Of a stretch of DNA of 64,000 nt, positions 260 through 43,861 are shown piece after piece. Position numbers and translations under genes: made by a program. Location: the IMG/VR virus record IMGVR_UViG_2854395284_000002, positions 27,638 to 91,637 of that record, one strand, 5' to 3'. Source of the stretch: a virus. Its lineage: Duplodnaviria > Heunggongvirae > Uroviricota > Caudoviricetes. How positions within the stretch are numbered: position 1 is the first letter of the stretch; each line of letters begins with the position of its first letter. Below the pieces are notes generated by a model. The model did no database searches. It saw only the letters and a list, made by a program, of their open reading frames with translations, and was not told the DNA's origin.

Positions 260-1867
260 TTAATCCACCTCCGAAAGTACATCGCATACTGCTTTTAGTA
301 CAAATTTTCTACCTAAAAATCCACTATCCAGACTACATACGGCTTCGAATTCATCATTCATAGTGCTATGATCCTCCATATCATCAAATGAACCGTCGAA
401 GTTCCATTTGATAATCTGCAAGTAATCATTCGGTTTTAGAACTAAATGCTTATAATCACTCATCTGACCAATTTCGTAATCACAAATATTATCCATATAA
501 GCTCTTACTGGTTTAAAATTTGTGCCAGAAATACGATCAATCTTTTTGATATTCTCTATTAATCGTCTGGTAATATCTTCGACATCAATTTGAATATCAA
601 TGTCAATTGTTGGTTCTTTAAACTCTGGAAGGTTTGTTTCGACATAAGACAAGAAATTGTTAAGATCTGATTTTTTGATTTGAATACCCGATGCAAGTTC
701 ATGCCCATCTGCTTTTGCATAACCACTATCATTGCAGATTTTTCGAAAATCATCAACACCTACGGCTCTCATAGAACCTGCGTATTTTGATCCGACATCT
801 TTCAACACTAAGATCGGCTTTTGATACTTTTCTAGTAGCTTATTTCCTAATAAACCAGCAATACCATATTGTGTATCAATATATACAGTGATTACCTTTT
901 GATCCTTTTGTTTCTCACATTGTTCATAAACATTCGGCAGTAAACGCTCCACTTCTTGATTTTGTTCTTCCTTACATTTCTTTAATGCTTTTACATAGGC
1001 AAGCACTTGTTTGTTATTATCTTCTAGAAATGCATTCATAGCAGTTTCATTTTCACCCATACGGTTCGCTGCATTTACAATTGGAGCAATACTAAATGCA
1101 ATTGCCGTACTGTTGAATTCAAATCCGCCGACAATCTTCTTAACTGCTGGATTATAAATCTTCTCAAGTCCTTTCGACACGATATAACGGTTTTCCATAA
1201 CTGTCATATCCATCATATCTCCAACTAGACCACATGCCGCAAGATCTACTAATTCATCTGCATAATCTGTAAGAAATTGTTCATCCAAATATTTACAGAA
1301 TTTCCATACCACCCCTGCTCCAGATAATTGCGAATTATCATAATCTCTTTGAGAAGAAATAAGAATTGTATATGTATCATATGGAATTTCCCGTTTAATT
1401 GCATGATGGTCTAAAATAAGTACATCGATTCCTGCTTCTGACAATTCTTTATACTGAATTTCGTCTTCGTCTAAACTATCTACAACAATCAATAAATCTA
1501 AAGATGCAAACTGCTGCAAATTTTGTCCTTTTAGTCCATGCTGCTTACCGTCATCAATATATGTAAAAATATCGTCTGTAAAATATCTCAAATATCGTGT
1601 CATAATCGTTCCTGCCGCGATTCCATCAGTATCTGTATCAAATAAAATACCAATGTTTTCGTTTTCTTCAATTGCCCGATTAATACGTATGTATGCTTCA
1701 TCAATCCTATATAAAGAATCCAGTGGAAGTAAATCTTCTTCTATTGGATTTAAAAAATGTTTCGCATCTTGAACTCCTCTTTGTTGAAGAATCGTATCAA
1801 ATACTTCATCCTCATACATTCCTCTACAATCGTTTAAAATATTATAATTCTTCTTCGTCCTTATCAT
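260..1867 (-). CDS. recJ: RecJ-like single-stranded-DNA exonuclease (DHH/DHHA1 phosphoesterase)
   Basis: 535 aa. DHH-family motifs DTDTDGIAAG, LILDHH and GAGVVWK, characteristic of RecJ. Confidence 0.8.
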   Translation of the reverse strand: MIRTKKNYNILNDCRGMYEDEVFDTILQQRGVQDAKHFLNPIEEDLLPLDSLYRIDEAYIRINRAIEENENIGILFDTDTDGIAAGTIMTRYLRYFTDDIFTYIDDGKQHGLKGQNLQQFASLDLLIVVDSLDEDEIQYKELSEAGIDVLILDHHAIKREIPYDTYTILISSQRDYDNSQLSGAGVVWKFCKYLDEQFLTDYADELVDLAACGLVGDMMDMTVMENRYIVSKGLEKIYNPAVKKIVGGFEFNSTAIAFSIAPIVNAANRMGENETAMNAFLEDNNKQVLAYVKALKKCKEEQNQEVERLLPNVYEQCEKQKDQKVITVYIDTQYGIAGLLGNKLLEKYQKPILVLKDVGSKYAGSMRAVGVDDFRKICNDSGYAKADGHELASGIQIKKSDLNNFLSYVETNLPEFKEPTIDIDIQIDVEDITRRLIENIKKIDRISGTNFKPVRAYMDNICDYEIGQMSDYKHLVLKPNDYLQIIKWNFDGSFDDMEDHSTMNDEFEAVCSLDSGFLGRKFVLKAVCDVLSEVD

Positions 1868-2870
1868 CTCCTAGTATTAAAATTTCATTATTTATGATAT
1901 ACTCAAATTTTTCTTTACCCATGTCGCTTGCAGAAACCTTTGGAGCATAATATGATTTTGTCCAATCCCAATATCCAATCTCAAATTCCGTAAACTTAGA
2001 ATAATGACGTAAAACTTCTACGTTTCTCTTTATATTGTCCAATTCATATCCTTGATCATGTAGAAAAATTACCTTTGTTGGATGTAGCTCCACAAGCAAC
2101 CGTGCTTGCTGTACACTTAAACTTCCACTCATAAGCGCAACAGCGTTTCTATATCCGTATGAATAACATTGCATGACAAATTTTTCTGCTTCTCCTACAA
2201 AAACAGTATTTTCAACAAGATATTGATAATTTTGAGCATAACCAAATAATGTAGTGCTGCAACGCCCAGGATAAGAATAAAAATATTTCAGCGCACCATC
2301 TGAAATCTCATAATTAAAACGTTCCTTAACCCCAATAAGCTGTCCATATTCATTTCTGATGGGAATAACAATTCCTTGTGATTCGACGTCATATCTTATT
2401 CCAAAATACTGCTGTGCATCTAATGATATATGATCTTTCAAAAATCGAATATTGGGATAGAATTGAAATTCATCTAATATTTTTTCGTCATATATTTTCG
2501 ATTGAATAGTGTTTCTTTGTCTAATCTTTTCATAAAATCCTCCAAAGATTCCTTTTTTCTGAAAGTGTCCAATATAATCTTGTATATGTAACACATTTTT
2601 TATTTCATTTAAGACGTCTACAAATTCTACTTTTCTTTGATTGGTGATATATGAAAAGATATCAGTTTGAATATTTCGAGCATAATCATGTACGTACAGC
2701 CAATTATTATTTTCAAGCTTAATTACAATACTTTTTTTCGAAGATTCTTCATCTCGCCCAAATTGCATGTATGTAGGCCGAATGACTATATTACAGTATC
2801 CAAAATGTTCCAATACCTCTTTTAGTTTTTCTGGATTATTTAATAGCTCTTTTTTAATATCTTCTAACAT
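1842..2870 (-). CDS. DNA primase, TOPRIM-domain (DnaG-like)
   Basis: 342 aa. TOPRIM-like block VFVGEAEKFVMQ...ALMSGSLS...VIFLHDQG. Sits between the helicase and recJ in the replication module. Confidence 0.55.
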   Translation of the reverse strand: MLEDIKKELLNNPEKLKEVLEHFGYCNIVIRPTYMQFGRDEESSKKSIVIKLENNNWLYVHDYARNIQTDIFSYITNQRKVEFVDVLNEIKNVLHIQDYIGHFQKKGIFGGFYEKIRQRNTIQSKIYDEKILDEFQFYPNIRFLKDHISLDAQQYFGIRYDVESQGIVIPIRNEYGQLIGVKERFNYEISDGALKYFYSYPGRCSTTLFGYAQNYQYLVENTVFVGEAEKFVMQCYSYGYRNAVALMSGSLSVQQARLLVELHPTKVIFLHDQGYELDNIKRNVEVLRHYSKFTEFEIGYWDWTKSYYAPKVSASDMGKEKFEYIINNEILILGDDKDEEEL

Positions 2871-2891
2871 ATATCACCACCAAGTTATTTT

Positions 2892-4451
2892 TTATCTTAT
2901 TTCTCCATGTTTCGGACGGCATTGTGCCACTTCTCTGAAGATAGAATGATCACCTGAAAACTTTAAAAGATACGCAATACCAGTATCACTGGAGTTATTA
3001 CCATTCCGAGTTTTTTCTACAAATAACATTCTCCATACTGCATTTGGATCTGCTTTATATTCCTCTTCAATCCATTTATCGTTAATCTTTTTCAGTCTAA
3101 ATGGATGGCAATAATATTTACTTTTTTCATCAAGTTCTTCAGCATAAACAGTTCGCATAAGGAACAAATTCTCAAGAATTTCTTTCGTCTGCTTGGCATT
3201 ACTAAGGCAACTGGCATCCAGGAATAATTTTCCTTTCATATATTCTGCCAACTGGACTGATGCCAACATGATTAAATTATATTTTTTTGCCAACTTATCT
3301 AACTCTCTACTGTCTCTAACTAAAGACAAATCTTGTCTGGAGGATGAAAAATCGCTCTCCTGGATTTTAAACGTATCGTATAGAACTGTATCATATCCAA
3401 ATTTAAGAACATTCTCGCGTACTTTCTTTTTAATAACAGCCATGTCTGCATCGTTCATAGCAATGAACTTTACGCGACCCTTATAATTCTTTCTCCAGAA
3501 TGCTTGCACATCTTTTAATTGCTCACGACTTTCCTTGTTTATATCACCCACAGACATTTTCTTTTTCGTGAGTTTAAAATATCTGTTCCTCTTGCCAAGG
3601 AGCCAAACCATAAATTTAATTTTAAATTTTTTAATATTTTCTTCGTTGGAAATAATAAGAATTTTCCGATCATAATATAGAAGAGCCATGAGAACTGTAA
3701 TCCACCAAGTGGATTTTCCTGCGCTACTGAATCCTCCCATCATTGTGAGAGTTCCTTCTAACAATCCCATTATTTGCCTAGATAAAAAAGGAAAACAATT
3801 AATTTCTTCTCCATTTTTATCATATCCTGCTATATCAAAAGGTACACCATTTTCTTCACCTTCTGCACATGATTCAATAAATTCGTCATCGAAATCTATT
3901 TCTTCTTCTTCCAGGATCTTGCTCGAATATCCGGTACCATAAGTGCTTATTCTTGCCTCATACCAATCCGTTACCTCTTCAGCAGTCATCTTTCGAAATA
4001 ATTTAATAGGAATAACTTTCTTATCCTTGATATTAATCTCTTTTAAAAGATTAAATCCATCATCGCACATGCGAAGCATAACATTTTCTCGATACAAGAT
4101 ATCAATGTATGTATCAAAATTCTGTGTATTGATAATGTCCATCTGATGCTGAATTGAATCCCATCCACCACAATCCTCATATCGATCAATGACTTCTTGT
4201 TTTGAATTTGACAGAATAGTTATTTCATCAAGAGAGTAGAATCCTTTTTTTCGTAAATCTTTCAGTAATGAAAAATAAAACCGACCATCAACAGTGATAA
4301 AATCGTCCTTTTCGAATGTCGTATCATCCAAAAGAAGCATATCCTTAAAGAAACAGCTTACAACGTTTCCTTCATATTCGATTCGTCCTTTTAATAGCTG
4401 CGCAGGATACTTTTCTTTGACACCTGTAATAAATTCAGCTATATTACTCAC
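2892..4451 (-). CDS. DnaB-family replicative DNA helicase
   Basis: 519 aa. Walker A GGFSSAGKST in a RecA-like C-terminal domain, followed by LIISNEE. An N-terminal helical domain is present, as in DnaB. Confidence 0.7.
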   Translation of the reverse strand: MSNIAEFITGVKEKYPAQLLKGRIEYEGNVVSCFFKDMLLLDDTTFEKDDFITVDGRFYFSLLKDLRKKGFYSLDEITILSNSKQEVIDRYEDCGGWDSIQHQMDIINTQNFDTYIDILYRENVMLRMCDDGFNLLKEINIKDKKVIPIKLFRKMTAEEVTDWYEARISTYGTGYSSKILEEEEIDFDDEFIESCAEGEENGVPFDIAGYDKNGEEINCFPFLSRQIMGLLEGTLTMMGGFSSAGKSTWWITVLMALLYYDRKILIISNEENIKKFKIKFMVWLLGKRNRYFKLTKKKMSVGDINKESREQLKDVQAFWRKNYKGRVKFIAMNDADMAVIKKKVRENVLKFGYDTVLYDTFKIQESDFSSSRQDLSLVRDSRELDKLAKKYNLIMLASVQLAEYMKGKLFLDASCLSNAKQTKEILENLFLMRTVYAEELDEKSKYYCHPFRLKKINDKWIEEEYKADPNAVWRMLFVEKTRNGNNSSDTGIAYLLKFSGDHSIFREVAQCRPKHGEIR

Positions 4452-4926
4452 CTACCTGTTCTTCAATATCAGATAAACTTCTTTTCTTCTGTCGTCGTTT
4501 ATAATGACCATCCGGTATATCAACTTCCACCTGTTTAGGTGCTTCTTTTTCTTTTACTTTAAAATCTGCGATACCATTTTTGATCATTGCAGAAAAATAT
4601 CTAATTTTAGCGTATTCACTCGAATAATCTCTTTGCTGAATGACAGATGTCATGTAATCTTTATTCTCTTTTAAATAGGCTAAAATCTGATCATAAGAAT
4701 AAGATCCAAGTATAAAACTTAACTCTTTGAACAATGCAGTATTAATTATTTTATAACCAAAAATCTCATTAATACACTCGTATGTATCGTCTCTTATTTT
4801 TCTGTCATGCAATACAGTTAGATATTCTGCTTCATTGCAGTAGTAGATGTTTTTACCATCCACTACCACTTTGAAAGCATCTTTTCTATCTACCTTGTTA
4901 TTGCAATATCTGCATTTAACAAGCAT
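4444..4926 (-). CDS. hypothetical protein with N-terminal Cys4 zinc-ribbon (CRYCNN...YYCNE)
   Basis: 160 aa ORF translationally coupled to the helicase. CxxC...C motifs. Confidence 0.4.
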   Translation of the reverse strand: MLVKCRYCNNKVDRKDAFKVVVDGKNIYYCNEAEYLTVLHDRKIRDDTYECINEIFGYKIINTALFKELSFILGSYSYDQILAYLKENKDYMTSVIQQRDYSSEYAKIRYFSAMIKNGIADFKVKEKEAPKQVEVDIPDGHYKRRQKKRSLSDIEEQVGE

Positions 4927-4938
4927 ACATGATACTCC

Positions 4939-6081
4939 TTAGTTCATCATATCGTAAATTCGTTTCAGTCCATCTTCATCTACATCATTAAGTTTGCCAT
5001 ATTCTGCAATGACTTTTCTGACGCTTGCTTTCTTATCTTTATCAGTACACTCTTTGAACATTGTGCGAATTACAGCAGCGAGATCTTCTGGATAATCAGA
5101 AGTTTCTGTCGCGGTTTCTTCTTGTGCTACTGTCTCCTCTACTGGAATATCATCAATATCCTCATCTTCTTCAATCGGTTCCGGATCGAGTTCTACTTTT
5201 TTCTTCTCCACAACTGGTTTAGATCTTTTACCAAGAGTAGATTTAGATTTCTCCATACCTTCCTCGACAACTCGAATAAAATCTGCCGCCATATTAGGTT
5301 TATCAAATACCAGATATTCTGGCACAGCGCCATCTGCAAAACGACCACCTGCGTCAATGAGTGTTGTTCCTCTGAAATAAAGTTTGCGAATAGTATCTGT
5401 CGCATATTTTTTGGTCTTATCTCCAACTTTTTTCTCCTCAAGATCACGGTCAATAACACCAGTAAGGGTTACATCAAAAATGTCTCCGAATGCTGCTTCA
5501 TAATCTGCTCCCATGTTTGAAGAAAGCTGCATATAACCATCTTCTTCCAGTCCACCCTTTTCTTTAATTGTTTTGAATTTTGTATGAGCAATAACCCACA
5601 CGCCAAACCCAGCATCTTCAAGACGAGTCATATACGGTTTAATGATGTCATTTGCGGAGAATTTTTCACCTGCTGTATATCCTCCAAATGCAGCCTTAAT
5701 TGATTTACATTTTTTGGTTGGATTCTCTACATTACTCTGACGAATTGTTTCCGCATCTGCAATTAGAGCAAGTTCATCACCGGTATCAAACGCCACCATT
5801 TCGATATCATGCTCTTTACCTTTTTCTTTAATAAGCCAGTCTGCTAACTCCTGAAGATCTTTATATGTCTTGACCTGTGTGGTATTTAAATTGTCAAGCA
5901 TTTTATAACCTTTCTCGTTTCCACATCCGACAAGCAGACCTTTTGCAGGATCTCCATATTTTTCCAGAACTACATCACGGAAAAGTGTCGTCTTACCAAA
6001 TTTCTTAGTACTTCTGAGGTAAATAGAAAGATTTTTGATGTCTGGTTTAATTACATTGATTGTTGGTTTCTGAAATGCCAT
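4939..6081 (-). CDS. AAA_24/Sak4-like RecA-fold ATPase with acidic C-terminal tail
   Basis: 380 aa. P-loop STKKFGKTTL (GxxxxGKT), Walker B-like VAFDTGDE, and an acidic tail EPIEEDEDIDD. Its position next to the SSB-like gene is typical for Sak4. Confidence 0.55.
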   Translation of the reverse strand: MAFQKPTINVIKPDIKNLSIYLRSTKKFGKTTLFRDVVLEKYGDPAKGLLVGCGNEKGYKMLDNLNTTQVKTYKDLQELADWLIKEKGKEHDIEMVAFDTGDELALIADAETIRQSNVENPTKKCKSIKAAFGGYTAGEKFSANDIIKPYMTRLEDAGFGVWVIAHTKFKTIKEKGGLEEDGYMQLSSNMGADYEAAFGDIFDVTLTGVIDRDLEEKKVGDKTKKYATDTIRKLYFRGTTLIDAGGRFADGAVPEYLVFDKPNMAADFIRVVEEGMEKSKSTLGKRSKPVVEKKKVELDPEPIEEDEDIDDIPVEETVAQEETATETSDYPEDLAAVIRTMFKECTDKDKKASVRKVIAEYGKLNDVDEDGLKRIYDMMN

Positions 6082-6149
6082 AAATATATATCTCCTTTAT
6101 ATATGTAGTTTATTATTGAAGAATCAGGAAGGCATAGCCCTTTTAATTC

Positions 6150-7358
6150 TTATAGTTCATCATCCTCGTCGAAAAGATCTTCTGTTCCTTCCGGAAGTTC
6201 TTCCTCAAGTGGTTTGATTGTCATGTCGTCCTCTGTATACACCGTGTCAACTCTTCCATGAGTGAATCCGCGAGCTGGTTTTACAAACTGATACTCCTTG
6301 ATTCTGTCACCATAAACTCCTTTGCTATATTCAGCACGGATATCATCCATAGCGATAAGTCCACAATCAAGGTCATTTTTCTGCTCATCGGTCAACATAT
6401 CTTCTGTAATTTCAATTCTCTGTGCGCCATTCAGCATATTAACAATTACACCATATTCCTTAAAACCATCATCCTCGACGATAAATTTATGTTTAATTGC
6501 TTCGATTCTTTTCTTAGCTTTTTCATCTGCATCTTCTGCTGCTACTGGGATTGCGACCGTAACCGGCACTGGAATATTGGCTTTTCTATTGTTGTCATAC
6601 TCCATCATGTAACCATTAACATAATATTTGCCCTTTTCTTCAACGCTCATATCATCAAAGCTTTCGGAATTGAATAGAATATTAAATGTTGCTGTCGAAG
6701 ATTCTTCTGCATCTTCTGCTGCTAGATAAATTCTATTTGGCATATAAGATTCATAAACAGTTCCTTTATTGTCGGAATACTGATATTCTCCATTTCCTCG
6801 AATAAAGAATTTTTTATCAGCATATTTTCCACTGTCAATTACTTTCTTAATGAAATCGATATAATCCCATTCAGAAATAAACTCATGACGTTTTTTAATA
6901 CTCTTCTCAAGCGCGTCGGATACCTCATCTGAAGATGTCAGTCCAACTTCTTTTAGTTCTTCATCCGTTAGCTCACTACCCTCATGAAGCTTATCTGCCA
7001 TATTCTGCAGTTTGTATCTTCGTCCCGGTTTTTCAAGATCAAAGATGAATTTTTTAAATTCAGCAACTTCTGCTAGTTTTGGAGAAGTCAGACGTTCTTT
7101 AAACGGAATCTGAATACTTTCGCCTTTAGTTTTTTTACCATTTTCATCTGTACCACCTTTGCTGAAGGTATATACAAATCCGTGTTCATCACCGAAAGCT
7201 CCTGCATTTACAGTAAGCATATGACGATTGTCTCCGCATGTCGCATTGAAAAGAAGTTGTTTTCTCACCCAACCAGATTCATACTTATTTTCCGAATATG
7301 GATGAAATTTTTCTGTATCTTTTCCAATACTTAGTTTTCCTGTCATTTCAAAATTCAT
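6150..7358 (-). CDS. putative phage ssDNA-binding / recombination-associated protein (acidic C-terminus)
   Basis: 402 aa. C-terminal EDLFDEDDEL resembles an SSB protein-interaction tail, and the gene is adjacent to the Sak4-like ATPase. No precise family recognised. Confidence 0.35.
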   Translation of the reverse strand: MNFEMTGKLSIGKDTEKFHPYSENKYESGWVRKQLLFNATCGDNRHMLTVNAGAFGDEHGFVYTFSKGGTDENGKKTKGESIQIPFKERLTSPKLAEVAEFKKFIFDLEKPGRRYKLQNMADKLHEGSELTDEELKEVGLTSSDEVSDALEKSIKKRHEFISEWDYIDFIKKVIDSGKYADKKFFIRGNGEYQYSDNKGTVYESYMPNRIYLAAEDAEESSTATFNILFNSESFDDMSVEEKGKYYVNGYMMEYDNNRKANIPVPVTVAIPVAAEDADEKAKKRIEAIKHKFIVEDDGFKEYGVIVNMLNGAQRIEITEDMLTDEQKNDLDCGLIAMDDIRAEYSKGVYGDRIKEYQFVKPARGFTHGRVDTVYTEDDMTIKPLEEELPEGTEDLFDEDDEL

Positions 7359-7568
7359 TAATTTTTGTCCTCCTAAAATTAAAATTTATATTATTGTTAA
7401 ATAAAACAATCTATTTTAACGCCCAATACATGGACGGAACACAGAATTAAATCTATGTTTAACTATGTAAACAGTGATTCAGGGCGCACAAACCCAAGGT
7501 ATGCTGTTAGCCACCCAATTTTATATTCTCTATTGAATTATTTATTTTTTTTGGATTTTTTGACTTGA

Positions 7569-7880
7569 TTAAGTCGGATTTACTATTCGATATGCTAATC
7601 TTTTATCTGTAAATATTTCTTCTCCATTATCTTTTAGTTTTGTTATGTTACAAGACAAATGCATTTCATCATATTTTAGATTCGAAATTTTACAATTAGA
7701 TTGTATACTGTTACCTTTCATAACTTTTGACTTGAAGAAAACTGCTTTACCATCATAATTCTTATGTGCCTCACAATATTCATTCCAACTGTCTGCTTCA
7801 ACTATTCTTGATTGATGATCTCGAATCATATTATTTTCATCAATAATTAGATTTGTTTCAATTACTTCTATGTATATCAT
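7569..7880 (-). CDS. hypothetical protein
   Basis: 103 aa ORF in the co-oriented array. No recognisable motif. Confidence 0.4.
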   Translation of the reverse strand: MIYIEVIETNLIIDENNMIRDHQSRIVEADSWNEYCEAHKNYDGKAVFFKSKVMKGNSIQSNCKISNLKYDEMHLSCNITKLKDNGEEIFTDKRLAYRIVNPT

Positions 7881-7912
7881 CTCCTTCTATATATTCTCTA
7901 CAATCTAATAAT

Positions 7913-8161
7913 TTATTTATTAACCATAACACTTCCATCAGAATTTAATCTTGGAGTCATACCACCCATTCCAGAATATCCTTCCTGATGTGAATAAACC
8001 CAATAATGAACCCCAGTATCAGGATCAACGAATTCATAAATATCATTATTATAGATTTTTGGAGTCGTTCCACTAAGATCCGTTGTAGTTCCTTTCACAC
8101 ATCCTGTCAGTGAAAATAATAGCATTGATGTTATTCCAAATAACACAAATTTCTTCTTCAT
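7913..8161 (-). CDS. putative lipoprotein
   Basis: 82 aa. Signal peptide MKKKFVLFGITSMLLFSLTGC with a lipobox (LTGC). Confidence 0.5.
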   Translation of the reverse strand: MKKKFVLFGITSMLLFSLTGCVKGTTTDLSGTTPKIYNNDIYEFVDPDTGVHYWVYSHQEGYSGMGGMTPRLNSDGSVMVNK

Positions 8162-8190
8162 CTTTTACATATTCTCCATCTTATTCTTTA

Positions 8191-8574
8191 TTATGCTTCA
8201 AAATTGAATTCATCAGATGTGATTTTTGTATTGCTGATTTTCTGATAGATATCCACATATATTTCATCTTTGTCTCTATTATAAGTTACTTCTGCATACT
8301 TATTTCTGCTCTTAGAATCCCATTTAACAAAATCCTCTAAATCATACTCGCCAGATTCTTCTTCGTTGATCTCAGGAACAAATACATTATAATTACCTTC
8401 GTTACGATCATGTTCAATTATCTGCCGCAGCATCTCATATATATTTGTAATTCCTAACTGATATGCTCTCTTTTCACCATCAGTCATTCCATCGCAAACT
8501 TCATCATTCTTACTCTCTAAAAGATCCTTATACTTTTCTAAGCTTTCTACGATTAATAAAAATTGTTCGTTCAT
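8191..8574 (-). CDS. hypothetical protein
   Basis: 127 aa acidic ORF. Confidence 0.45.
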   Translation of the reverse strand: MNEQFLLIVESLEKYKDLLESKNDEVCDGMTDGEKRAYQLGITNIYEMLRQIIEHDRNEGNYNVFVPEINEEESGEYDLEDFVKWDSKSRNKYAEVTYNRDKDEIYVDIYQKISNTKITSDEFNFEA

Positions 8575-11319: not shown

Positions 11320-11406
11320 CCTTACACCTCCATATTCTCTCTTGTTGTATAATGTTATTTCACTTAATACTCTGCATGGCTATTACACCATACAGAGTAA
11401 AATATA

Positions 11407-12141
11407 TTATTTTTTCTTAGCTGCTTTTAATGAATCTAATTTCTTTTGAAGCTCTTCATCTTTCATCTTTTTATCCAGACGCTTCATCTGAACGTCAATG
11501 GAATTCTTGTAAGCGATTCTTGTACCGTCAGCCTGTTCTTTTGTTTTCTGAACGCCTTCACGAACCTTTTCAAGCATTCTATCTTCTTCTTGACTTGAAG
11601 CGCTTGTGGCAGATTGTAAAGATTTTACGGTTTCTGCAGCCTCGAGTGTGAATACTGCTTTATCCTTTTCTGCTTTTAAAGATTTAATTTCTTCCTGCAG
11701 AGCTGTTAAATTTTCTTTCTGTACATCTCTATTCTCTTTTAATTCTTTCAGAGTTGTCTTAATCGTTTCAATTTTGTCCGTGATTTCCTGCTGTCTTGCA
11801 AGATATACTTTTGCACCTTCGTCATCATTTCTATCAATACAGGATGCAACACTAAGATCCATCTGCATATTCTCTTTCTGCAACTGTCTTAATTGTGTTT
11901 CATAATTCTGGATTTTACCCTCGACCTGGGTATATAAAGAGTTTGTTTTGGTGTAAGTATCTTCCTTCTTCCAAATAATAGAATTATAGTAGGCTTTTGC
12001 TCCATCTGGCGTAGATGCATCATTGCCAATGATTTCATCTGCTGTTCCTGATGCTCTCATTTTTAGTCTCTTACCCGTTTTAGTTGTTGTAAAAAATACA
12101 ACTGCCGCAATCACAAGAATTACGATAATCAATACTGTCAT
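11407..12141 (-). CDS. membrane-anchored coiled-coil protein, PspA/IM30-like (tentative)
   Basis: 244 aa. N-terminal TM helix, then long heptad coiled-coil segments resembling the PspA/Vipp1 layout. Last gene of the Ter-like operon. Confidence 0.35.
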   Translation of the reverse strand: MTVLIIVILVIAAVVFFTTTKTGKRLKMRASGTADEIIGNDASTPDGAKAYYNSIIWKKEDTYTKTNSLYTQVEGKIQNYETQLRQLQKENMQMDLSVASCIDRNDDEGAKVYLARQQEITDKIETIKTTLKELKENRDVQKENLTALQEEIKSLKAEKDKAVFTLEAAETVKSLQSATSASSQEEDRMLEKVREGVQKTKEQADGTRIAYKNSIDVQMKRLDKKMKDEELQKKLDSLKAAKKK

Positions 12142-12143
12142 AG

Positions 12144-12782
12144 TTAATCCCTACCTTCGTCAATATCAAGTCCAAAGTTTTTAAATAGCTCTGTCATGCC
12201 TCCCATATATCCTGATCCAAGAGCCTGGAATTTGAATCCATCACCGTATCTATAAAGTCTACCCATCTCAACGGCATTGAGCTTTTCAAAATTCTCATTT
12301 TCAGAAAGATCATATTCCCACTTTGTTGTCGGATTGTCATAATCACAGATCATCATAGTTGCGTTATTAGCCATTCCAAAATTCTGTAGTCTCTGTACAG
12401 CTCTGAAAATAGTAAGACAAATTGTAAAATCTGTTCTGTCTGACGGAAATGTATCTGCATGAACAATAAAATATTCATCATAATGATGTCCATCAAAAGT
12501 AATTCCCTGAGAATCGTCACCCGTAAGATTGTCTCCAGAATATTCTACCCACGGATATCCACTACCATCACCATATGTATTATAGTTTACAATATCTTTT
12601 GGATAAGCTACTTTTCGATCTGAATTTGTAAGAAATCCGTTAATATCAAAATCAATATCTGATTCACCTGCATAACGATTCTGATCCCAATTCACACCAA
12701 TGAAAAAGTTTTTGATTGCAGTTCCATCTTCTTTTGTCATACTAATTTTCTGATTTTTGCTCATATTAATTACGTTTGCCAT
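12144..12782 (-). CDS. terD: TerD-family stress/tellurite-resistance protein
   Basis: 212 aa. N-terminal MANVINMSKNQKISMTKEDG...IGVNWDQ and DIDFDINGFL match the TerD signature (VSLSKGxNVSLTK ... LGWD ... DLDASAFLL). Confidence 0.75.
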   Translation of the reverse strand: MANVINMSKNQKISMTKEDGTAIKNFFIGVNWDQNRYAGESDIDFDINGFLTNSDRKVAYPKDIVNYNTYGDGSGYPWVEYSGDNLTGDDSQGITFDGHHYDEYFIVHADTFPSDRTDFTICLTIFRAVQRLQNFGMANNATMMICDYDNPTTKWEYDLSENENFEKLNAVEMGRLYRYGDGFKFQALGSGYMGGMTELFKNFGLDIDEGRD

Positions 12783-12801
12783 AATTATGTATTCTCCTTT
12801 T

Positions 12802-13620
12802 TTACTGTTTGTTATTTAGCCAATCTTTGTATGGTCTCAAAAGCTCTGTATATAGTTCTTCGTCAGTCATTCTGTTCATGTTTTTGACTGCGATAAATCC
12901 AGTGTTGTCACATTTTCTACCCTTCATATCATCCAGAGATCTCAGATAACTAAAATTCTCATTTCCAATGCCAACAAACTGTACAAACATATTGTAATTA
13001 GAAAGCTCTTTCACAATTTTATTTGTTTCGTCTGTATCCCAATTTTCACCATCTGTAATAAAAATGATAAATGCTGGAATTGTACTTGGCTCAATATCCT
13101 TATAATAGGAAACAATATCTTTCAAGACTGGAGCGTAATTAGTTCCACCCATACTCATATGAGAATTCATCATAATTTTTCGAACATAGTTCTTATAATT
13201 ATCAATTGTCACTGGTTTCAAAGAATCAAAATCATTTGAAAATAGCCAAGATTCTAACTCCCCATTATCATCAAATTTAAGAGCGATTGGCAAAAGTCTT
13301 GTAATTACATCTTGTACAGATCCGTTTCTAAAAAGATTACCCATACTTCCAGAGTAATCCATAGCGAGCGCAACCCTTGCTTGATGCTTAGTCATATCAA
13401 TTTTGCTTGATTTCGACATATTAATTAGCACATTATTTAAATTTTCTGCTGACTTAGACATATCAATTACAACTTGCTGCGCTGTATTTTCTTCATGTAC
13501 CACAGCGGATGTATTATCCGCCATAGTATTTGTTGTTGTAGTCTTTTTTCCAAAAAGTTTGTCAAATAGTCCCATGATTTTTATTCTCTCCTTTGATAAA
13601 TAATTTTCGAATAACATCAA
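12802..13620 (-). CDS. von Willebrand factor A (vWA) domain protein, TerY-like
   Basis: 272 aa. MIDAS motif AMDYSGSM and TDGE. N-terminal region has a TerD-like strand motif (VIDMSKS..INMSKSSKIDMTK). The true start is possibly the internal Met (MGLFDKLF, about 13575). Confidence 0.65.
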   Translation of the reverse strand: MMLFENYLSKERIKIMGLFDKLFGKKTTTTNTMADNTSAVVHEENTAQQVVIDMSKSAENLNNVLINMSKSSKIDMTKHQARVALAMDYSGSMGNLFRNGSVQDVITRLLPIALKFDDNGELESWLFSNDFDSLKPVTIDNYKNYVRKIMMNSHMSMGGTNYAPVLKDIVSYYKDIEPSTIPAFIIFITDGENWDTDETNKIVKELSNYNMFVQFVGIGNENFSYLRSLDDMKGRKCDNTGFIAVKNMNRMTDEELYTELLRPYKDWLNNKQ

Positions 13621-16177
13621 CCACGATTACAGTGAGTGATAGTCCAATGATTGCGATCCACTGACTCATATTCATTGCTGTTGCCTGGATAAGTCCGCCG
13701 AGTGCATTACATAAAGCAATAGTTCCAAGTACAATACCTGCTGCAATATATACAAATGTTTTATTGTTTTTCAGTCCATTGAGCAAATTAATATGTTCTG
13801 TACGAATACCAAATCCATTGCATACAGACATGATGCAAAGCATTGCAAATCTTGCAGTCATAGCTTCGACATCTGTTGTAAATAATTTTGATACTGGTGA
13901 AAACATAAGAATTCCATATAGTACAATAAATGTTACTGTGCTAATAGTAATTCGTTTCTTTGCACCTCGAATAAACAATCCAGAACCCTTCTTAATTGGA
14001 TTCTCTGTCATATATTCAGCTTTCGGAGGTTCCCCGCCAAATGACAATGAATTAAGTGAATCCATGATAATATTGATAATCAGAATCTGAACGGAAGCTA
14101 GTAATGCTCCGCCAGATAAAATAGGAAATAGAATACTTAAAACCAGAAGTGAAAAGTTGATTGGCAACTGAAACTCCAAAAACATCATGATATCGTGCAT
14201 AAATGTTCTACCAAGTTCCACGCCTCTAATAATACTTGCGAAGTTATTGTCTGTTAGAATAATATCGGATGCTTCTTTTGCAACATCTGTTCCAGCTTCC
14301 ATGCCAAAGCCTACATCCGCTTTCTTTAAAGCAGGAGAATCATTTGTCCCATCTCCCGTCATTCCAACAGATCTACCAAGCTCCTGTGCAAGACTTACAA
14401 GTCTAAGCTTTGTATTAGGAGAGCATCTGGAAATAACTCTAAGAGTTGGAATAATCTTCTTAATTTCATCATCAGACATTGCCTCGAACTGTGCATTTGT
14501 AAGAGCAAGATCCCCTTCTTTATAAATACAAGCTTCTGTCGCTACTGCTACTGCAGTCTCATGGCAATCACCAGTAATTTCAATAACTTGAATACCTGCT
14601 TCATGCGCAATCTGTACAGCCTGTGGAACTTCTTTTCTTACTGGATCAACGACGCCAATAATTCCTAGAAATACCATATCATCTGGTAATGTATTCTCAA
14701 CAATGTTCCCATTCGCCATCGCCAATGCGATGCAGCGCATGGATTTTTTCGTCATTGATTTGATAACATTTAAAAGTCTCTCTTTATCTTGTTTATTAAA
14801 CGCTACAGGCTCTGAAATTAACATTTTAGAACAATGTTCGATAAGTTTCTCTGGCGCACCTTTATAATAGGAAATTCCGCTCTCAGACGTACAGGAAGAG
14901 TACTTATATTCACTTTGAAATACCTGTTTCATAATAATTTTGTTGTTTTTCTGAATGTCAAAAAACTCAGTAAAATCAACGTATTTTAAGATTGCTCTGT
15001 CAATAGAGTTTCCGCCTGTGATATTATTCTCTGCATCATATGTGGCACTATTGTTCAAACAGATATTTTGTTTGATGCAATCCCAAAGATTAGTACCCTG
15101 ATCAACTTCATTGCCATATCCGTCAATGACAGTCGTAGGTGTCATAACTCCTGTTGTAAGAGTTCCTGTTTTGTCAGTACAAATTAGATCTACGTATGCA
15201 AGTTCTGGAATCTTGTTTGGATTTTTTGCAAGAATATTGAATCGTTCCATTGTCTTGACATTCTGTTTTGTAACAAGCTTGATAATTAATGGAAGTCCTT
15301 CTGGAACAGCAGCCACAATGATTGTTAGAGCAACCGAAATATTCTGTGCAATCTTTTGGATAACTTCTAGCACACCACCATTGATATATTCCCTGAATCC
15401 AATATGCGCAATATCCGTTACCATCAGTGCAATAAACGTGACGACTGCAGCAATCGTTCCATATCTCGAAATTGTATCACAAAGTTTATCGATCGCAATC
15501 TGAAGTGCTGTTTTAGGTGGCTCAAGTGTCTGCATTTTTACAAGTGTGTCACCATTTATGGTGTTTACGCCAACTTCGCCTACGATCATCTTTCCTTCGC
15601 CAGACAGAATCGTTGTTCCAGCAAATAAGCTATTTTGATTCGTAAAATCATCGGTGGATGTTGATTTTTTGTATACATAACCATTAATTGGAATTTTCTG
15701 ACATTCTTTACTTTCTCCGTTGATAGCAGCATTGCTTACAGAAATTTTACCCTCAATAATATATCCATCCGCGTAAATTTCCTGTCCAGTTCCAATACAA
15801 ACCACATCACCAACAACTAAATTATCTTTGTTGATTGTCTGAACTTGCCCATCTCTGATAACATCACAATACCTAGTTGATGTCTTTGCTCTTAGTTCTT
15901 GTGTTGATTTTTGAATACCAAGCGCCATTTTTACACCAATATATGTACATAATGAAATAACTAAAATCACCATGATTGGTTCTGAAAATGATGCCAATCC
16001 AAATACTGCAGCGAAAATCCCATATGCAGATAATGCTAATAACAGCATCAGCGTTTTATCACCAAAGATATTTTCAATCGCAAATTCATACCACTTTTTA
16101 AGTTTTGGTTCTGGTAGTTTGTTTGAGCCATATTTTTCCCGACTCATTTTTACTTGTTCGTTTGTTAGTCCTTTCAA
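13562..16177 (-). CDS. P-type cation-transporting ATPase, P2 (Ca2+-ATPase-like)
   Basis: 871 aa. Phosphorylation motif ICTDKTGTLT, plus TGDCHETA and TGDGTNDSPALKKADVGFGM. N-terminal LTNEQV..YGSNKL as in Ca/cation pumps. Ten predicted TM helices. Confidence 0.85.
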   Translation of the reverse strand: MKGLTNEQVKMSREKYGSNKLPEPKLKKWYEFAIENIFGDKTLMLLLALSAYGIFAAVFGLASFSEPIMVILVISLCTYIGVKMALGIQKSTQELRAKTSTRYCDVIRDGQVQTINKDNLVVGDVVCIGTGQEIYADGYIIEGKISVSNAAINGESKECQKIPINGYVYKKSTSTDDFTNQNSLFAGTTILSGEGKMIVGEVGVNTINGDTLVKMQTLEPPKTALQIAIDKLCDTISRYGTIAAVVTFIALMVTDIAHIGFREYINGGVLEVIQKIAQNISVALTIIVAAVPEGLPLIIKLVTKQNVKTMERFNILAKNPNKIPELAYVDLICTDKTGTLTTGVMTPTTVIDGYGNEVDQGTNLWDCIKQNICLNNSATYDAENNITGGNSIDRAILKYVDFTEFFDIQKNNKIIMKQVFQSEYKYSSCTSESGISYYKGAPEKLIEHCSKMLISEPVAFNKQDKERLLNVIKSMTKKSMRCIALAMANGNIVENTLPDDMVFLGIIGVVDPVRKEVPQAVQIAHEAGIQVIEITGDCHETAVAVATEACIYKEGDLALTNAQFEAMSDDEIKKIIPTLRVISRCSPNTKLRLVSLAQELGRSVGMTGDGTNDSPALKKADVGFGMEAGTDVAKEASDIILTDNNFASIIRGVELGRTFMHDIMMFLEFQLPINFSLLVLSILFPILSGGALLASVQILIINIIMDSLNSLSFGGEPPKAEYMTENPIKKGSGLFIRGAKKRITISTVTFIVLYGILMFSPVSKLFTTDVEAMTARFAMLCIMSVCNGFGIRTEHINLLNGLKNNKTFVYIAAGIVLGTIALCNALGGLIQATAMNMSQWIAIIGLSLTVIVVDVIRKLFIKGENKNHGTI

Positions 16178-16267
16178 TTTTACACTCCTTTTCTATTTGT
16201 TTTAGAACATTTATAACAAAGATGAGTCAAAAATAATAATGACCATCTTAGTCATACTTATTTATTC

Positions 16268-17183: not shown

Positions 17184-18017
17184 TTAATATTTATACTTCC
17201 ACTTATACCCTTTGCACAAAACATCTTTTTCGCATGATTTTATTATTCCAGACAAACCTTTTAGCCCTACTGATTTTGCCGCATCTGTAATTGATGCAAA
17301 TTCTTCAATAAAATTATTGTTCTCATCACATTTCATAACTGCTTTCTTTTTATTTGCCATCGTCGCTTTATATTCTCCGATATTACCTTTTTTCTCAAAA
17401 CTCCATCTATAATTATTTGCAGATTGTTGAGAGCCATTTAAACATAAACTTATATCTGTATTTCTTGTTCCTGTTTTTCTTCCGGCTTCAGCAATTGACC
17501 AAAATTCATCTATATATTCGCCATCCATTTGATATCTATATACAGTTTTGCCCCTAGTCTTTGAAGCAGACGAAAATCCTCTTCTCTTGCTTTCTTCAGA
17601 TGAGTATTTATCATAACCTTCCAAAATATGAATAATTTGATATTTTCCATGTTTAGTTATTTCATGAATGTCTTTAATAGTTTTTCCTTCATCCCACAGA
17701 CGATATATATTTGCTCTATCAATTGTATTTTTTAATGTATCTCCACCAATTGTTTGATTGTAACCATCGTTGTATGTATCGTAATATTCTATCCAATAAA
17801 TTTCTCGTTCGTTTAATTCTTCTTGTGAACATTCTTCTAAAACAATTAATTCAAAATTACTTTCACCATATTTTCTTATTGCCTTATGAATTGCCATATT
17901 GTAAGCTTTTTTGTTTACTTGTGCATTATATGATTCACTCAAATGATTTCTATATCTATACCATATATCTATACTTTGACCTATATATTTTTTATCGTTT
18001 ATTTTATTGCGTATCAT
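17184..18017 (-). CDS. GIY-YIG homing endonuclease with NUMOD-type DNA-binding modules
   Basis: 277 aa. N-terminal KYIGQSIDIWYRYRNH is a GIY-YIG motif (YIGQS ... R ... H). C-terminal repeats ANNYRWSF and GYKWKYKY are typical of I-TevI/Seg-like enzymes. Confidence 0.75.
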   Translation of the reverse strand: MIRNKINDKKYIGQSIDIWYRYRNHLSESYNAQVNKKAYNMAIHKAIRKYGESNFELIVLEECSQEELNEREIYWIEYYDTYNDGYNQTIGGDTLKNTIDRANIYRLWDEGKTIKDIHEITKHGKYQIIHILEGYDKYSSEESKRRGFSSASKTRGKTVYRYQMDGEYIDEFWSIAEAGRKTGTRNTDISLCLNGSQQSANNYRWSFEKKGNIGEYKATMANKKKAVMKCDENNNFIEEFASITDAAKSVGLKGLSGIIKSCEKDVLCKGYKWKYKY

Positions 18018-27526: not shown

Positions 27527-27766
27527 TTATATTCTCTCATTCCATTTTCGAATTGCTTCGCATTTTGTTTTATCGTGTTCCTCTTCTTTTCTATAAGTAT
27601 CTACACTACACGTTCCGCCTCTAGCATGACACTTATTGCAAATCACAAAATATGCAACTTTCGAATATCTTGTCTTTTGACCAATTCTTAATTTAGTCCA
27701 CCCGCAGAACGGGCATGGTTTTAATTCTTTTTCTTTGATATTAATCATGTTTATCACTCCTATCAA
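27527..27766 (-). CDS. Lar-family restriction alleviation protein (zinc ribbon)
   Basis: 79 aa. LKPCPFCGW...CNKCHARG...AIRKWNER matches the Lar consensus (PCPFCG ... AWN-R). Confidence 0.55.
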   Translation of the reverse strand: MIGVINMINIKEKELKPCPFCGWTKLRIGQKTRYSKVAYFVICNKCHARGGTCSVDTYRKEEEHDKTKCEAIRKWNERI

Positions 27767-34313: not shown

Positions 34314-35414
34314 TTATAGTTCATAAATATCATTTCTTGTTTCACCGTCAGAATAATAAATATTCCATTCGTCAAATAATTCTTCTAACAATTTCATATC
34401 AACCGAATATTCATTACCGTGTGTGATAGCAATTGATTTCTTATCTCCGAATGTTCCAACATCTTTTTCACATCTATCGTATAATTCTTTTAAGTCTAAC
34501 ATTCCATATCTTAATGTATCCTGATGCGGATTTGGAATATTTGTTTTATCAAACATGTACGGATTGATTAAATATTTGTCGCATTCGCTAGGAAATTTTC
34601 CTGCTCCATGTCTTGTTAAATATGTACGAGATACATAACAGGTTTCAATATTGATATCATCAGCCCAGTTAGTATTTTCAATAATTTTCTTTGGATTTTT
34701 GATACCAGTATTTGATGGTGTAAGATGTGGAAAATAATCTGTATTATTCTGATCCAAAAGAAGCCCTTGTGCTGCTTCAAAGATAATATTATCAAAAACA
34801 TTTAAAAAATCATTTGTTTCCATTTCAACACTATGAATGTTCATAAAATCCCAGTCGTTCCAAAAATGATGAAAAATTCCATCGTCAAGAAATAACTTTT
34901 CCCACTTATAAGACAATGATATCTTCTCTTTTTCAAACTGCTTTATATAATAGTCTCTGATAGAAAAATTAACATTTATTACACCAGCTTTATATCTTTT
35001 TATTGTCTCAAAAATTCCAAGCCCACAGCTACCATGCTTGTCCTTTCCACGGCTTTCTTCAATGATCTGATTCGCCATCATATCCCAAGGTGTCGTAATC
35101 ATACAGTTTTTGTTGATATAAACTTCTGGTCGATATCCTAGATTGGTCAACTCATCATATTCCTGTTTGAAAATAATAGGATTTAAAATAAAATCTTCTG
35201 GCAGATATGTAGCTGCTCCATTAAATGTGCCAGATCCAAAATGATGAAAGACATGTCGAATGCCATCTGGTGACGTAACCGTATGTCCTCGTTGCGCTCC
35301 ACCATTAGAACATATAACAATACTATTTTTCTTTTGAGAAAAATAATTTGTTATCAACCCTTTTCCCTCGTCGCCAAACGATCCACCAATCACAATCTTA
35401 ATGTCTTTCATCAT
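34314..35414 (-). CDS. adenylosuccinate synthetase (PurA) family enzyme, short form; PurZ candidate
   Basis: 366 aa. IVIGGSFGDEGKGLITNYF (PurA P-loop GDEGKGK), NGGAQRGHTV (GGHNAGHT), FHHFGSG. It is about 60-70 aa shorter than canonical PurA. Confidence 0.7.
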   Translation of the reverse strand: MMKDIKIVIGGSFGDEGKGLITNYFSQKKNSIVICSNGGAQRGHTVTSPDGIRHVFHHFGSGTFNGAATYLPEDFILNPIIFKQEYDELTNLGYRPEVYINKNCMITTPWDMMANQIIEESRGKDKHGSCGLGIFETIKRYKAGVINVNFSIRDYYIKQFEKEKISLSYKWEKLFLDDGIFHHFWNDWDFMNIHSVEMETNDFLNVFDNIIFEAAQGLLLDQNNTDYFPHLTPSNTGIKNPKKIIENTNWADDINIETCYVSRTYLTRHGAGKFPSECDKYLINPYMFDKTNIPNPHQDTLRYGMLDLKELYDRCEKDVGTFGDKKSIAITHGNEYSVDMKLLEELFDEWNIYYSDGETRNDIYEL

Positions 35415-41112: not shown

Positions 41113-41907
41113 TCAGTCTAAATATGATTTCAGACCACTTTCAAAATATGGAATTGGTCTTCTCTTGAATCTGTATTTTTCAACCCTTGCATCGATAATA
41201 GCTTTTACTGCAGCATCATCAATTTCACCTGTTCTTGCATACCGATCGAATACAGAATATTTAAATCCAAGAGCGCTTTCATCAGAAGATCCACATAATC
41301 CGTCTGACGGCGTTTTGTCAACCATCTTTTTCAGTAGAATCGTCTCATATCCAATAGCTTTTACTTCCTGTACTGTGAAATCCTTTAATGGTGCAAAGTC
41401 TCCTACTGCATCGCCCCAGCGAGTTTCCCAAGATAAGAGTGTTTCCGAAAGATTGCATGTATTAGCAACTCGTCCATTCATACTCTGTGAAATTGCATAA
41501 AGTGTTGCCATTCTGATTCGAGGAGGCAGATTAATTGATGTCTGTTTTGACCAATGATCACCAATTTGTGGTCTGATTTCGTGCTTTAGCGCAAGAATTG
41601 CTGGATGAATATCTACAGTACAGTATTCAATACCTAAATGTTTAGCAACTTCATAGGCATCTTCAATATCTGTCTGTTCTCCGTCTGGCATGAGCACACC
41701 TAAAACTCTATTCTTTCCAAGAGCTTCCACACAGAGAGCCGCAACAATGCTTGAATCTTTACCCCCTGAAAGACCTACTGTGGCAATACAATCTTTCCCA
41801 TTCTGCTCAAAGAACATTTTAATCCACTCGACAATCTTATTTTTTGTTTCTTTTGCATCAAAAGTATACATATCTATTCTCCTCTCCTTTACTGATTTAA
41901 TTTCCAC
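41113..41907 (-). CDS. nadE: NH3-dependent NAD+ synthetase (PP-loop ATP pyrophosphatase)
   Basis: 264 aa. PP-loop VGLSGGKDSS (SGGxDS). The size and layout match single-domain NadE. Confidence 0.8.
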   Translation of the reverse strand: MEIKSVKERRIDMYTFDAKETKNKIVEWIKMFFEQNGKDCIATVGLSGGKDSSIVAALCVEALGKNRVLGVLMPDGEQTDIEDAYEVAKHLGIEYCTVDIHPAILALKHEIRPQIGDHWSKQTSINLPPRIRMATLYAISQSMNGRVANTCNLSETLLSWETRWGDAVGDFAPLKDFTVQEVKAIGYETILLKKMVDKTPSDGLCGSSDESALGFKYSVFDRYARTGEIDDAAVKAIIDARVEKYRFKRRPIPYFESGLKSYLD

Positions 41908-43860: not shown

Positions 43861-43861
43861 T

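Follow-up and report, generated by a model that had tools for sequence, protein, structure and literature searches.

What would a gut bacteriophage gain from a membrane cation pump that is encoded together with proteins resembling components of the bacterial Ter and Psp stress systems? This question is raised by a four-gene locus at positions 11407-16177 of a 64,000-nucleotide stretch of DNA (the window; positions 27,638 to 91,637 of IMG/VR record IMGVR_UViG_2854395284_000002, assigned to the Caudoviricetes), which a preliminary description had taken for a phage-borne, Ter-like stress operon. Four consecutive open reading frames (ORFs) on the minus strand fill the locus, all at the positions given in that description. 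From the 5' end, they encode a P2-type (PMCA/SPCA-like) cation-transporting P-type ATPase of 871 aa (13562..16177), a standalone TerF-type von Willebrand factor A (vWA) protein of 257 aa (12802..13575), a TerD-domain protein of 212 aa that belongs to a divergent, phage-specific subtype (12144..12782), and a transmembrane (TM)-anchored protein of 244 aa that resembles PspA and Vipp1 of the ESCRT-III superfamily (11407..12141). We consider it slightly better than even, with a probability of about 0.55, that these genes constitute an abbreviated Ter-type device that serves membrane integrity and Ca2+ homeostasis in the infected cell, acting at its cytoplasmic membrane.

The pump matched the Pfam families E1-E2_ATPase (2.2e-32), Cation_ATPase_C (9.2e-28), Cation_ATPase_N, and Hydrolase, and it had PHROG matches as well. 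Its translation contains both motifs quoted in the preliminary description, CTDKTGTLT and TGDGTNDSPALKKADVGFGM; the phosphorylation motif, in full ICTDKTGTLT, and the TGDGxND hinge each align to Arabidopsis ACA8. This plant PMCA-type enzyme was also the nearest solved structure (1.5e-87), followed by SERCA, SPCA1, and Listeria LMCA1. The top NCBIfam model was TIGR01517 for PMCA-type Ca2+-ATPases, with 449 bits against an equivalog cutoff of 507, ahead of the PMR1-type model TIGR01522 (367 versus 798 bits) and the SERCA-type model TIGR01116 (310 versus 703 bits). Thus, the pump reached none of these three equivalog cutoffs, and the TIGR01517 subfamily is the nearest. Models for heavy-metal P1B pumps gave at most 173 bits (cutoffs of at least 313), which agrees with the earlier assignment to the P2 Ca2+-type rather than the P1B pumps. 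The ligands of Ca2+ site II, a glutamate in TM4 and an asparagine and an aspartate in TM6, are kept, with AVPEGLPL and INIIMDSL in the pump corresponding to VPEGLPL and VNLIMDTL in ACA8. Because the TM5 and TM8 positions that we take to match site I of SERCA are non-acidic, the enzyme appears to be a single-site P2 pump. Judging from its sequence, the substrate is most likely Ca2+, possibly with Mn2+ as well. The nearest proteins beyond the phage clade are only 40-42% identical to the pump, suggesting that it is an old gene of the phage lineage and no recent capture. These relatives are almost nameless, and the few that are labeled as metagenome-assembled genomes (MAGs) of "Alphaproteobacteria bacterium" are possibly mis-binned.

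The vWA protein matched PF10138, the vWA domain of the TerF C terminus, at 1.6e-60 (205 bits; cutoff, 29.4) and the generic VWA model at 2.9e-06 (28 bits). Because PF10138 far outscores the generic model, we class the protein as TerF-type and not as the TerY-like protein of the preliminary description, of which the vWA and metal ion-dependent adhesion site (MIDAS) part stands. The MIDAS is complete, with DYSGS, GGT, and TDG (the DxSxS, T, and D elements) invariant across 10 lineages. No PP2C phosphatase or Ser/Thr kinase gene of the kind found in TerY triads adjoins the vWA gene, whose neighbors are the pump and terD. The protein also matched phrog_5359 and the Pfam family Copine (3.1e-10). 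From its N terminus, it consists of a conserved motif, a hypervariable linker, a short segment resembling the N terminus of TerD, and the vWA domain. The N-terminal motif MG(L/F)(F/W)xxLF (MGLFxKLF) is kept across the 10 lineages. We claim only a conserved motif here, as the actual N terminus, MGLFDKLFGKK, was rejected as an amphipathic membrane helix on the basis of a hydrophobic moment of 0.28 versus a shuffled mean of 0.32. Unlike TerF, the protein has no full N-terminal TerD domain, only the segment of about 15 residues, LINMSKSSKIDMTKH, which is identical at 10 of 15 positions to the TerD N terminus of the same phage, VINMSKNQKISMTKE (pairwise E = 2e-4). This segment may be the remnant of a TerD-vWA fusion similar to TerF or a docking element that mimics a strand. 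A partial second copy, VIDMSKSAENL, was observed in the region preceding the vWA domain. We placed the start codon at ATG 13575, which has the Shine-Dalgarno sequence AAAGGAGAG and lies such that the gene overlaps the TGA stop of the pump by 14 nt. This start displaced a candidate TTG at 13620, and independent gene calls on other assemblies give proteins of 256-257 aa.

The identification of the 212-aa protein as a genuine TerD was borne out by a match to PF02342 over profile positions 3-187 of 187 (4.6e-35; 121 bits; cutoff, 25.3) and by full-length alignments to the solved structures 2KXT and 3IBZ (E ~ 1e-23). As a reference for Ca2+ binding, we used the motifs of canonical phage and bacterial TerDs, namely, a DxDxD strand and GDNxTG followed by an acidic GDGDDE loop. 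The corresponding stretches DIDFDING and GDNLTGDD are kept in the phage protein, but its acidic loop differs from those of the canonical proteins in having an 8-residue insertion, DSQGITFDGHHYDE. In a comparison of paralogs, the protein was 31-39% identical to all other TerDs compared, and its sequence marks it as a derived, phage-specific subtype.

The 244-aa protein has a TM helix at residues 2-19, a basic K/R-rich stretch, a long α1-α2 hairpin at residues 45-176, and two further helices. Because the basic stretch follows the TM helix, the remainder of the protein should face the cytoplasm. An AlphaFold2 model had pLDDT values of >90 over residues 50-170, with the hairpin arms spanning residues 45-103 and 107-176. 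With this model as the query, Foldseek ranked Vipp1 or PspA structures of the Protein Data Bank (PDB) at all positions from 1 to 17 (E = 3.5e-4 to 0.04); CdvB and Asgard ESCRT-III proteins came next. Together with the TM helix, this result agrees with the PspA-like, TM-anchored coiled-coil protein noted in the preliminary description. A profile search against the PDB reached Vipp1/PspA only at E ~ 0.02, with a consistent register, and the protein matched phrog_33389 at 2.4e-18. PF04012 is on record for the homologs at 34-39% identity and for some at 58-86% (marked as weak for P0447), and the sister-clade homologs also carry it, with the JGI name "phage shock protein A." The long α1-α2 hairpin and the helices that follow it are common to the phage protein and to PspA, Vipp1, and LiaH, whereas the phage protein differs in its true N-terminal TM helix and in a module without the PspBC/PspF or LiaIF partners. 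We accept the protein as a predicted member of the PspA/ESCRT-III superfamily in which the TM anchor replaces helix α0. A conserved D-A-S-T-P-E-G segment stands at what we take to be the place of the PspA "EDP" motif before α1. TelA was considered as an alternative identity and rejected, since no Pfam TelA match was obtained at E ≤ 0.01; the 384-aa neighbor in a bacterial operon described below matches TelA at 1.6e-101.

These four genes recur as a fixed module. Among IMG/VR loci retrieved via the pump or the PspA-like protein, the order pump-vWA-TerD-PspA-like was found in 72 of 72 (66 complete, the others truncated where the contig ends or having the pump gene split), with identities falling to 46% (pump), 64% (vWA protein), 55% (TerD), and 48% (PspA-like protein). 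Four GTDB genome records have the same gene order, and the same module occurs on contigs of 395-405 kb with phage neighbors. A sister clade with a related backbone carries pump-TerD-TerD-TerD-PspA-like instead, and a more distant version lies on a 173-kb contig binned as Treponema. Because the sister clade keeps the pump, three TerDs, and the PspA-like protein, the invariant core would comprise the pump, one or more TerDs, and the PspA-like protein. The ratio of nonsynonymous to synonymous substitution rates (dN/dS) was 0.02-0.29 over all four genes, indicating that all are under purifying selection. TerD is the most constrained (0.02-0.08, at saturating dS), with values of 0.06-0.12 for the vWA protein and 0.07-0.29 for the pump. 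In a comparison with one relative (L015), dS was 0.70 for the pump and ~0 for the PspA-like protein, a difference which indicates that the module recombines internally.

The arrangement of the genes suggests a single transcript. The gaps between pump and vWA, vWA and TerD, and TerD and PspA-like genes are -14, 19, and 2 nt, respectively, and a 13-bp stem-loop without a U tract comes right after the final stop codon (11368..11399; fold energy of -20.8 kcal/mol; z = -5.0 versus shuffled sequences). Because of the overlap, the 19-nt and 2-nt gaps, and the closing hairpin, the four genes likely form one transcription unit, with the stem-loop likely acting as the 3' end or a stabilizer of the transcript. 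Upstream of the pump, a 90-nt intergenic stretch (16178..16267), alignable among close relatives only, holds a Shine-Dalgarno sequence (AAGGAG, ahead of the TTG start of the pump) and a possible extended -10-like element, TGTTATAAA. A scan for the σ70 consensus gave 34 candidates versus 27.5 in shuffled sequences, which is not an enrichment, so no promoter was assigned. Likewise, a scan for intrinsic terminators gave 3 versus 2.2 in shuffled sequences and was not enriched.

The module resides in a gut phage of approximately 205-210 kb. One flank encodes a RecJ-like nuclease, a primase, a DnaB-like helicase, and Sak4, and the other encodes a GIY-YIG homing endonuclease, a PurZ-like protein, NAMPT, phosphoribosyl pyrophosphate (PRPP) synthetase, NAD synthetase, methyltransferases, and an integrase-like protein. 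These flanks place the module on a phage, as the preliminary description had it, and not on a host chromosome outside a mobile element. The window has two tRNA genes, nearly all of its genes on one strand, and a GC content of ~33%, with which the GC content of the pump gene agrees. No genes for TerC, TelA, TerB, or phosphoribosyltransferase (PRTase)/HAD proteins were found in the module or in a scan of the 30 larger ORFs of the window. We therefore reject filing the module as a classical Ter system (terZABCDEF or yceCDEFGH) and regard it, by its gene content, as a Ter-derived variant.

A bacterial operon ties this variant to Ter systems more closely. Record MT836648.1 (L004) encodes PRTase_2/TRSP, StiP-PELOTA, C-C lyase, YceG, TelA, and three TerDs, followed directly by a P-type ATPase. 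This record, a contig from a gut member of the Bacillota, was deposited as "Bacteriophage sp.," and we judge it to be bacterial because it carries MetRS, TatD, and capsule-synthesis genes. As in the phage module, the TerDs directly adjoin a P2-type pump, and there is a membrane-associated partner with a coiled coil. In contrast, the bacterial operon has the additional PRTase/TRSP, StiP-PELOTA, C-C lyase, and YceG genes, TelA instead of the PspA-like protein, no standalone TerF-type vWA protein, and its pump at the 3' end, with ~30-35% identity to the phage pump. The three TerDs of the sister clade pair one-for-one with the three L004 paralogs at 58-63% identity and have the insertion in the middle paralog in common with them, which suggests that the sister-clade TerDs derive from a host-type TerD triplet. 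That a bacterial Ter operon ends in a pump of a homologous class argues that the phage module is an abbreviated form of a host-type Ter system, and the Ter relationship proposed in the preliminary description is thereby upheld. L004 has 42% GC and is labeled "UNVERIFIED: Bacteriophage sp."; a second record with this label, MT840059.1 (L003), also looks bacterial (59% GC) and has three TerDs and a pump. Many records named "Listeria phage LM" or "Enterococcus phage Efs" that match the pump look like host contigs as well. The tblastn matches of the pump to such Listeria and Enterococcus phage records were mostly to short unannotated contigs at 25-30% identity and were left unused as probable host contamination.

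Partial versions of this arrangement are known from other phages. In Herelleviridae phages of Bacillus and Lysinibacillus, TerD is paired with TerC in the order TerD-TerD-TerC; proteins of the TerC type export metals (PMC10550928). In two such phages, YungSlug (Bacillus) and LysYB1 (Lysinibacillus), a 244-246 aa "membrane protein" after TerD was considered as a PspA-like protein and rejected, BLASTP being empty and Pfam identifying TerC; their ~856-aa "ATPase domain protein" was likewise rejected as a counterpart of the pump, as it is not a P-type pump. Iyer et al. (2021) reported shortened Ter operons that carry TerD, TerC, TerF, and TelA in jumbo phages, including Caulobacter phages, and placed TelA and TerF-vWA in the sub-membrane structures of Ter systems (PMC7824862). 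Like the module described here, these operons combine a phage TerD, a cation transporter of the membrane, and a scaffold beneath it that includes a TerF-type vWA protein. They differ in using TerC and TelA where our module has a P-type ATPase and a protein of PspA/ESCRT-III-like type; the vWA protein of our module, moreover, is not fused to a full TerD. By analogy, the simplest reading is that the pump takes the role of TerC and the PspA-like protein that of TelA.

A second precedent comes from the Jug (jumbo gut) phages of Bacteroides and Phocaeicola, which encode a Ca-translocating P-type ATPase and, in a separate operon, terD with a pspA-like gene; transcription of both is high in the human gut (Sci Adv 2026; PMC12880540). 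These too are huge gut phages with a Ca-type pump and terD beside a pspA-like gene, whereas the Jug pump lies in a separate operon together with a small protein encoded upstream, a vWA protein is not mentioned, and in our phage the four genes are contiguous; the pspA-like genes were compared by description only. The same study reported such pumps in 81 further huge gut phages of 200-447 kb, some of them Bacillota-like, and placed the phage pumps closest to enzymes of Bacteroidaceae or Bacillota (PMC12880540); the present clade is probably among the 81. A virus-encoded P2-type Ca2+ pump is also known from a chlorella virus (Bonza et al. 2010, as cited in PMC12880540), that is, from a eukaryotic giant virus and, as far as that citation describes it, without TerD, vWA, or PspA partners. 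Beyond PMC12880540, a full-text literature search for PspA and TerD returned nothing that links them as gene neighbors. Leaving aside the 2012 Ter comparative-genomics paper and the 2026 supplements, we found no description of the fixed four-gene module with its TerF-type vWA protein or of an explicit substitution of a pump for TerC and PspA for TelA. The individual parts and partial pairings are thus already published. Given the gut-phage Ca-ATPases and the terD-pspA-like operon (PMC12880540), the phage Ter operons (PMC7824862), and the recurrence of the fixed module in at least 72 phage contigs of IMG/VR and in metagenome contigs numbering in the hundreds, the combination is not the unusual one that the preliminary description took it to be.

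In our preferred model, the pump would spend ATP to expel cytoplasmic Ca2+, and possibly Mn2+, standing where the cation exporter TerC sits in classical Ter operons. TerD, as a Ca2+-binding β-sandwich, and the TerF-type vWA protein, with the metal site of its MIDAS, would act as cytosolic sensors or adaptors that bind divalent cations. The TM-anchored PspA/ESCRT-III-like protein, in the place of TelA, would polymerize on the inner face of the membrane to stabilize or reseal it. Jointly, these activities might keep cytosolic Ca2+ low and the membrane energized throughout the long infection cycle of a phage of ~200 kb, and could protect the cell from leakage brought on by superinfecting phages, by pore-forming toxins, or by abortive-infection effectors that target the membrane. 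In this sense, the earlier proposal that the element manipulates the cation or membrane-stress physiology of its host is plausible from the predicted functions of its proteins; for its companion proposal, pre-emption of a Ter-type abortive response, the present analysis gave no supporting evidence.

Several observations weigh against this model. The score of the pump falls below the PMCA equivalog cutoff, and its TM6 NIIMD motif is, on our understanding, compatible with SPCA-type Ca/Mn pumps as well as PMCA-type pumps. The insertion in the acidic loop of TerD means that Ca2+ binding by this protein may not be assured. Pfam PspA_IM30 (PF04012) gave the 244-aa protein of the window a sub-threshold 21.6 bits (cutoff, 33.9), and the canonical N-terminal amphipathic helix α0 is absent from this protein, which has the hydrophobic TM helix there instead. 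PADLOC recognized none of the four module proteins, and its output for the PspA-like protein was coiled-coil noise only (JetC and LmuB). Furthermore, close relatives show free reassortment of the alleles of the pump and the PspA-like gene, with no sign of allele-specific co-adaptation. Finally, in one locus (L107, positions 1013-5258; IMGVR_UViG_3300045988_166876), the pump gene is split after approximately residue 226 by a 1.6-kb insertion with an oppositely oriented 474-aa ORF that resembles a DDE-type transposase, i.e., an insertion sequence (IS) element, while the pump is intact in the sister contigs L108-L111. This locus is a natural pump knockout, and the pump is therefore not strictly essential and is dispensable at least transiently.

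A bolder form of the membrane-integrity model draws on eukaryotic cells, in which Ca2+ entry triggers membrane repair by ALG-2, ALIX, and ESCRT-III, with copines and annexins taking part. The module could be a viral and prokaryotic counterpart of this Ca2+-triggered wound repair, an analogy that we put forward tentatively and regard as rather improbable. A breach would admit Ca2+, to which TerD and the copine-like vWA protein would bind. They would then seed the TM-anchored ESCRT-III-like polymer at the damaged site, and the pump would afterwards reset cytosolic Ca2+. Both systems would have a similar set of Ca2+-binding sensors, a copine-like vWA protein, a polymer of the ESCRT-III fold, and Ca2+ extrusion, but the sensors are non-homologous, being TerD in the phage and EF-hand or C2 domains in eukaryotes. 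If true, this would give TerD and Ter a concrete biochemical role, that of a Ca2+ sensor for membrane damage, and phages would carry the module to keep the host cell alive until lysis.

Other functions could be drawn from the same genes. Plasmid ter operons confer a phage-inhibition phenotype, and an altered membrane or sub-membrane layer might similarly block the entry of DNA from later phages, so that superinfection exclusion or inter-phage conflict would be the primary role. This possibility, which we regard as rather doubtful, overlaps with the membrane-integrity model except that competitor phages, not general membrane upkeep, would be the target of selection. It agrees with the role in superinfection exclusion that Iyer et al. 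(2021) proposed for jumbo-phage Ter operons (PMC7824862) and with the abundance and co-circulation of these phages, for which recombination within the module (dS of 0.70 for the pump versus ~0 for the PspA-like gene) implies frequent co-infection. The same frequent recombination among relatives, however, argues that any exclusion would be leaky, and the module has none of the DNA-targeting or biosynthetic Ter components (PRTase, HAD, and TerB). Alternatively, the pump might be a stand-alone ion-homeostasis gene that lowers cytosolic Ca2+ or supplies Mn2+ or Ca2+ at the surface, thereby tuning host metabolism, replication, or packaging, with TerD, vWA, and PspA-like genes as loosely related neighbors. 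The NIIMD motif of TM6, on our assumed motif assignment, would also suit an SPCA-type Ca/Mn pump. The authors of the Jug-phage study propose such a role for phage Ca-ATPases, and the location of the Jug pump and terD-pspA in different operons implies that they are able to function apart (PMC12880540). We nevertheless find this explanation unlikely for the present phages, as the four genes are never separated in the 72 loci of the family, the sister-clade pump adjoins three TerDs and the PspA-like gene, and the bacterial pump closes a Ter operon, a linkage that argues for joint function.

Control of lysis timing, in which the TM-anchored coiled-coil protein and the Ca2+ level would govern holin triggering or terminal membrane disruption, draws on general features only. 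PspA responds to membrane-permeabilizing proteins, and the PspA-like protein is a single-pass protein with a cytoplasmic coiled coil. But no endolysin, holin, or spanin gene adjoins the module, whose neighbors are replication, nucleotide-metabolism, and homing-endonuclease genes, and the fold is Vipp1/PspA-like and not holin-like, making this role highly improbable. That the genes are recently captured host passengers without a role for the phage might be supposed from the frequency of Ter genes and Ca-ATPases in gut bacteria (PMC12880540). This idea is effectively refuted by the conservation of gene order across lineages down to 46-55% identity, by purifying selection on all four genes, and by a pump that is 40-42% identical to the nearest outside proteins and has the GC content of the phage.

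The function of TerD and of Ter systems has been unclear for decades, and in this phage family TerD stays coupled to a Ca2+-type pump and an ESCRT-III-like membrane protein even among deeply diverged members. Because of this linkage and of the gut bacterial Ter operon that ends in a pump, our findings point to Ca2+-linked membrane integrity as a core function of Ter, an idea that the module reduces to three or four testable genes. Cultured isolates of Blautia and Ruminococcus have the phage family in their assemblies, which may make experiments possible. In practical terms, the significance is moderate: this analysis refines and connects the observations published in 2021 and 2026 and opens no new category.

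The same assemblies bear on the host. A megablast search of the region against GenBank phages gave zero matches, indicating that a close cultured relative is lacking among them. Pump proteins nearly identical to this one are encoded on hundreds of contigs from gut metagenomes, the longest ~205-210 kb, and human gut metagenomes contain the phage family in great abundance. A 100% identical copy of the pump is deposited under Blautia sp. AF17-9LB, and relatives of the module occur in a scaffold of the isolate Ruminococcus sp. AM36-2AA and in MAGs of Oscillospiraceae and Lachnoclostridium, giving a lead to a host in Blautia or the Lachnospiraceae. The Ruminococcus scaffold (L058; QTYB01000001.1; 499 kb) holds the entire module, with the pump at 5767-8418, and the phage may be integrated in it or may merely have been scaffolded in. 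Its pump alignment contains an in-frame TAA, which could reflect a pseudogene or a sequencing error. Another contig, IMGVR_UViG_3300029402_000234 (250 kb), has two diverged copies of the module (L088 and L130) ~185 kb apart in opposite orientations and probably arose when two related phages were assembled into one chimera.

Several genes elsewhere in the window add to the picture of the phage. The GIY-YIG/NUMOD homing endonuclease gene (17184-18017) lies ~1 kb upstream of the module. A homolog of PurZ-type adenylosuccinate synthetase (34314-35414) matched phrog_1211 at 1.6e-66, suggesting that the phage may make 2-aminoadenine (Z) DNA. Genes for NAD synthetase, NAMPT, and ribose-phosphate pyrophosphokinase are clustered at 41113-44692 and presumably form an NAD+-reconstitution set of the kind that phages deploy against NAD-depleting defenses; NAMPT and NAD synthase genes adjoin the module in two related phages (L053 and L133) too. 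A protein with a GmrSD_N-like domain is encoded at 46177-47679. The tyrosine-integrase-like gene near the end of the window (60725-61765) could indicate a temperate or plasmid-like lifestyle or could serve in dimer resolution. Mobile elements appear to be colonizing this phage: an IS110-family transposase gene (DEDD_Tnp_IS110 and Transposase_20; 50283-51560) lies within an island of 44% GC (peak at 50-52 kb) in the 33% GC genome, and the transposase-like gene at 56603-57847 (phrog_2199) is the sole large plus-strand ORF of the window.

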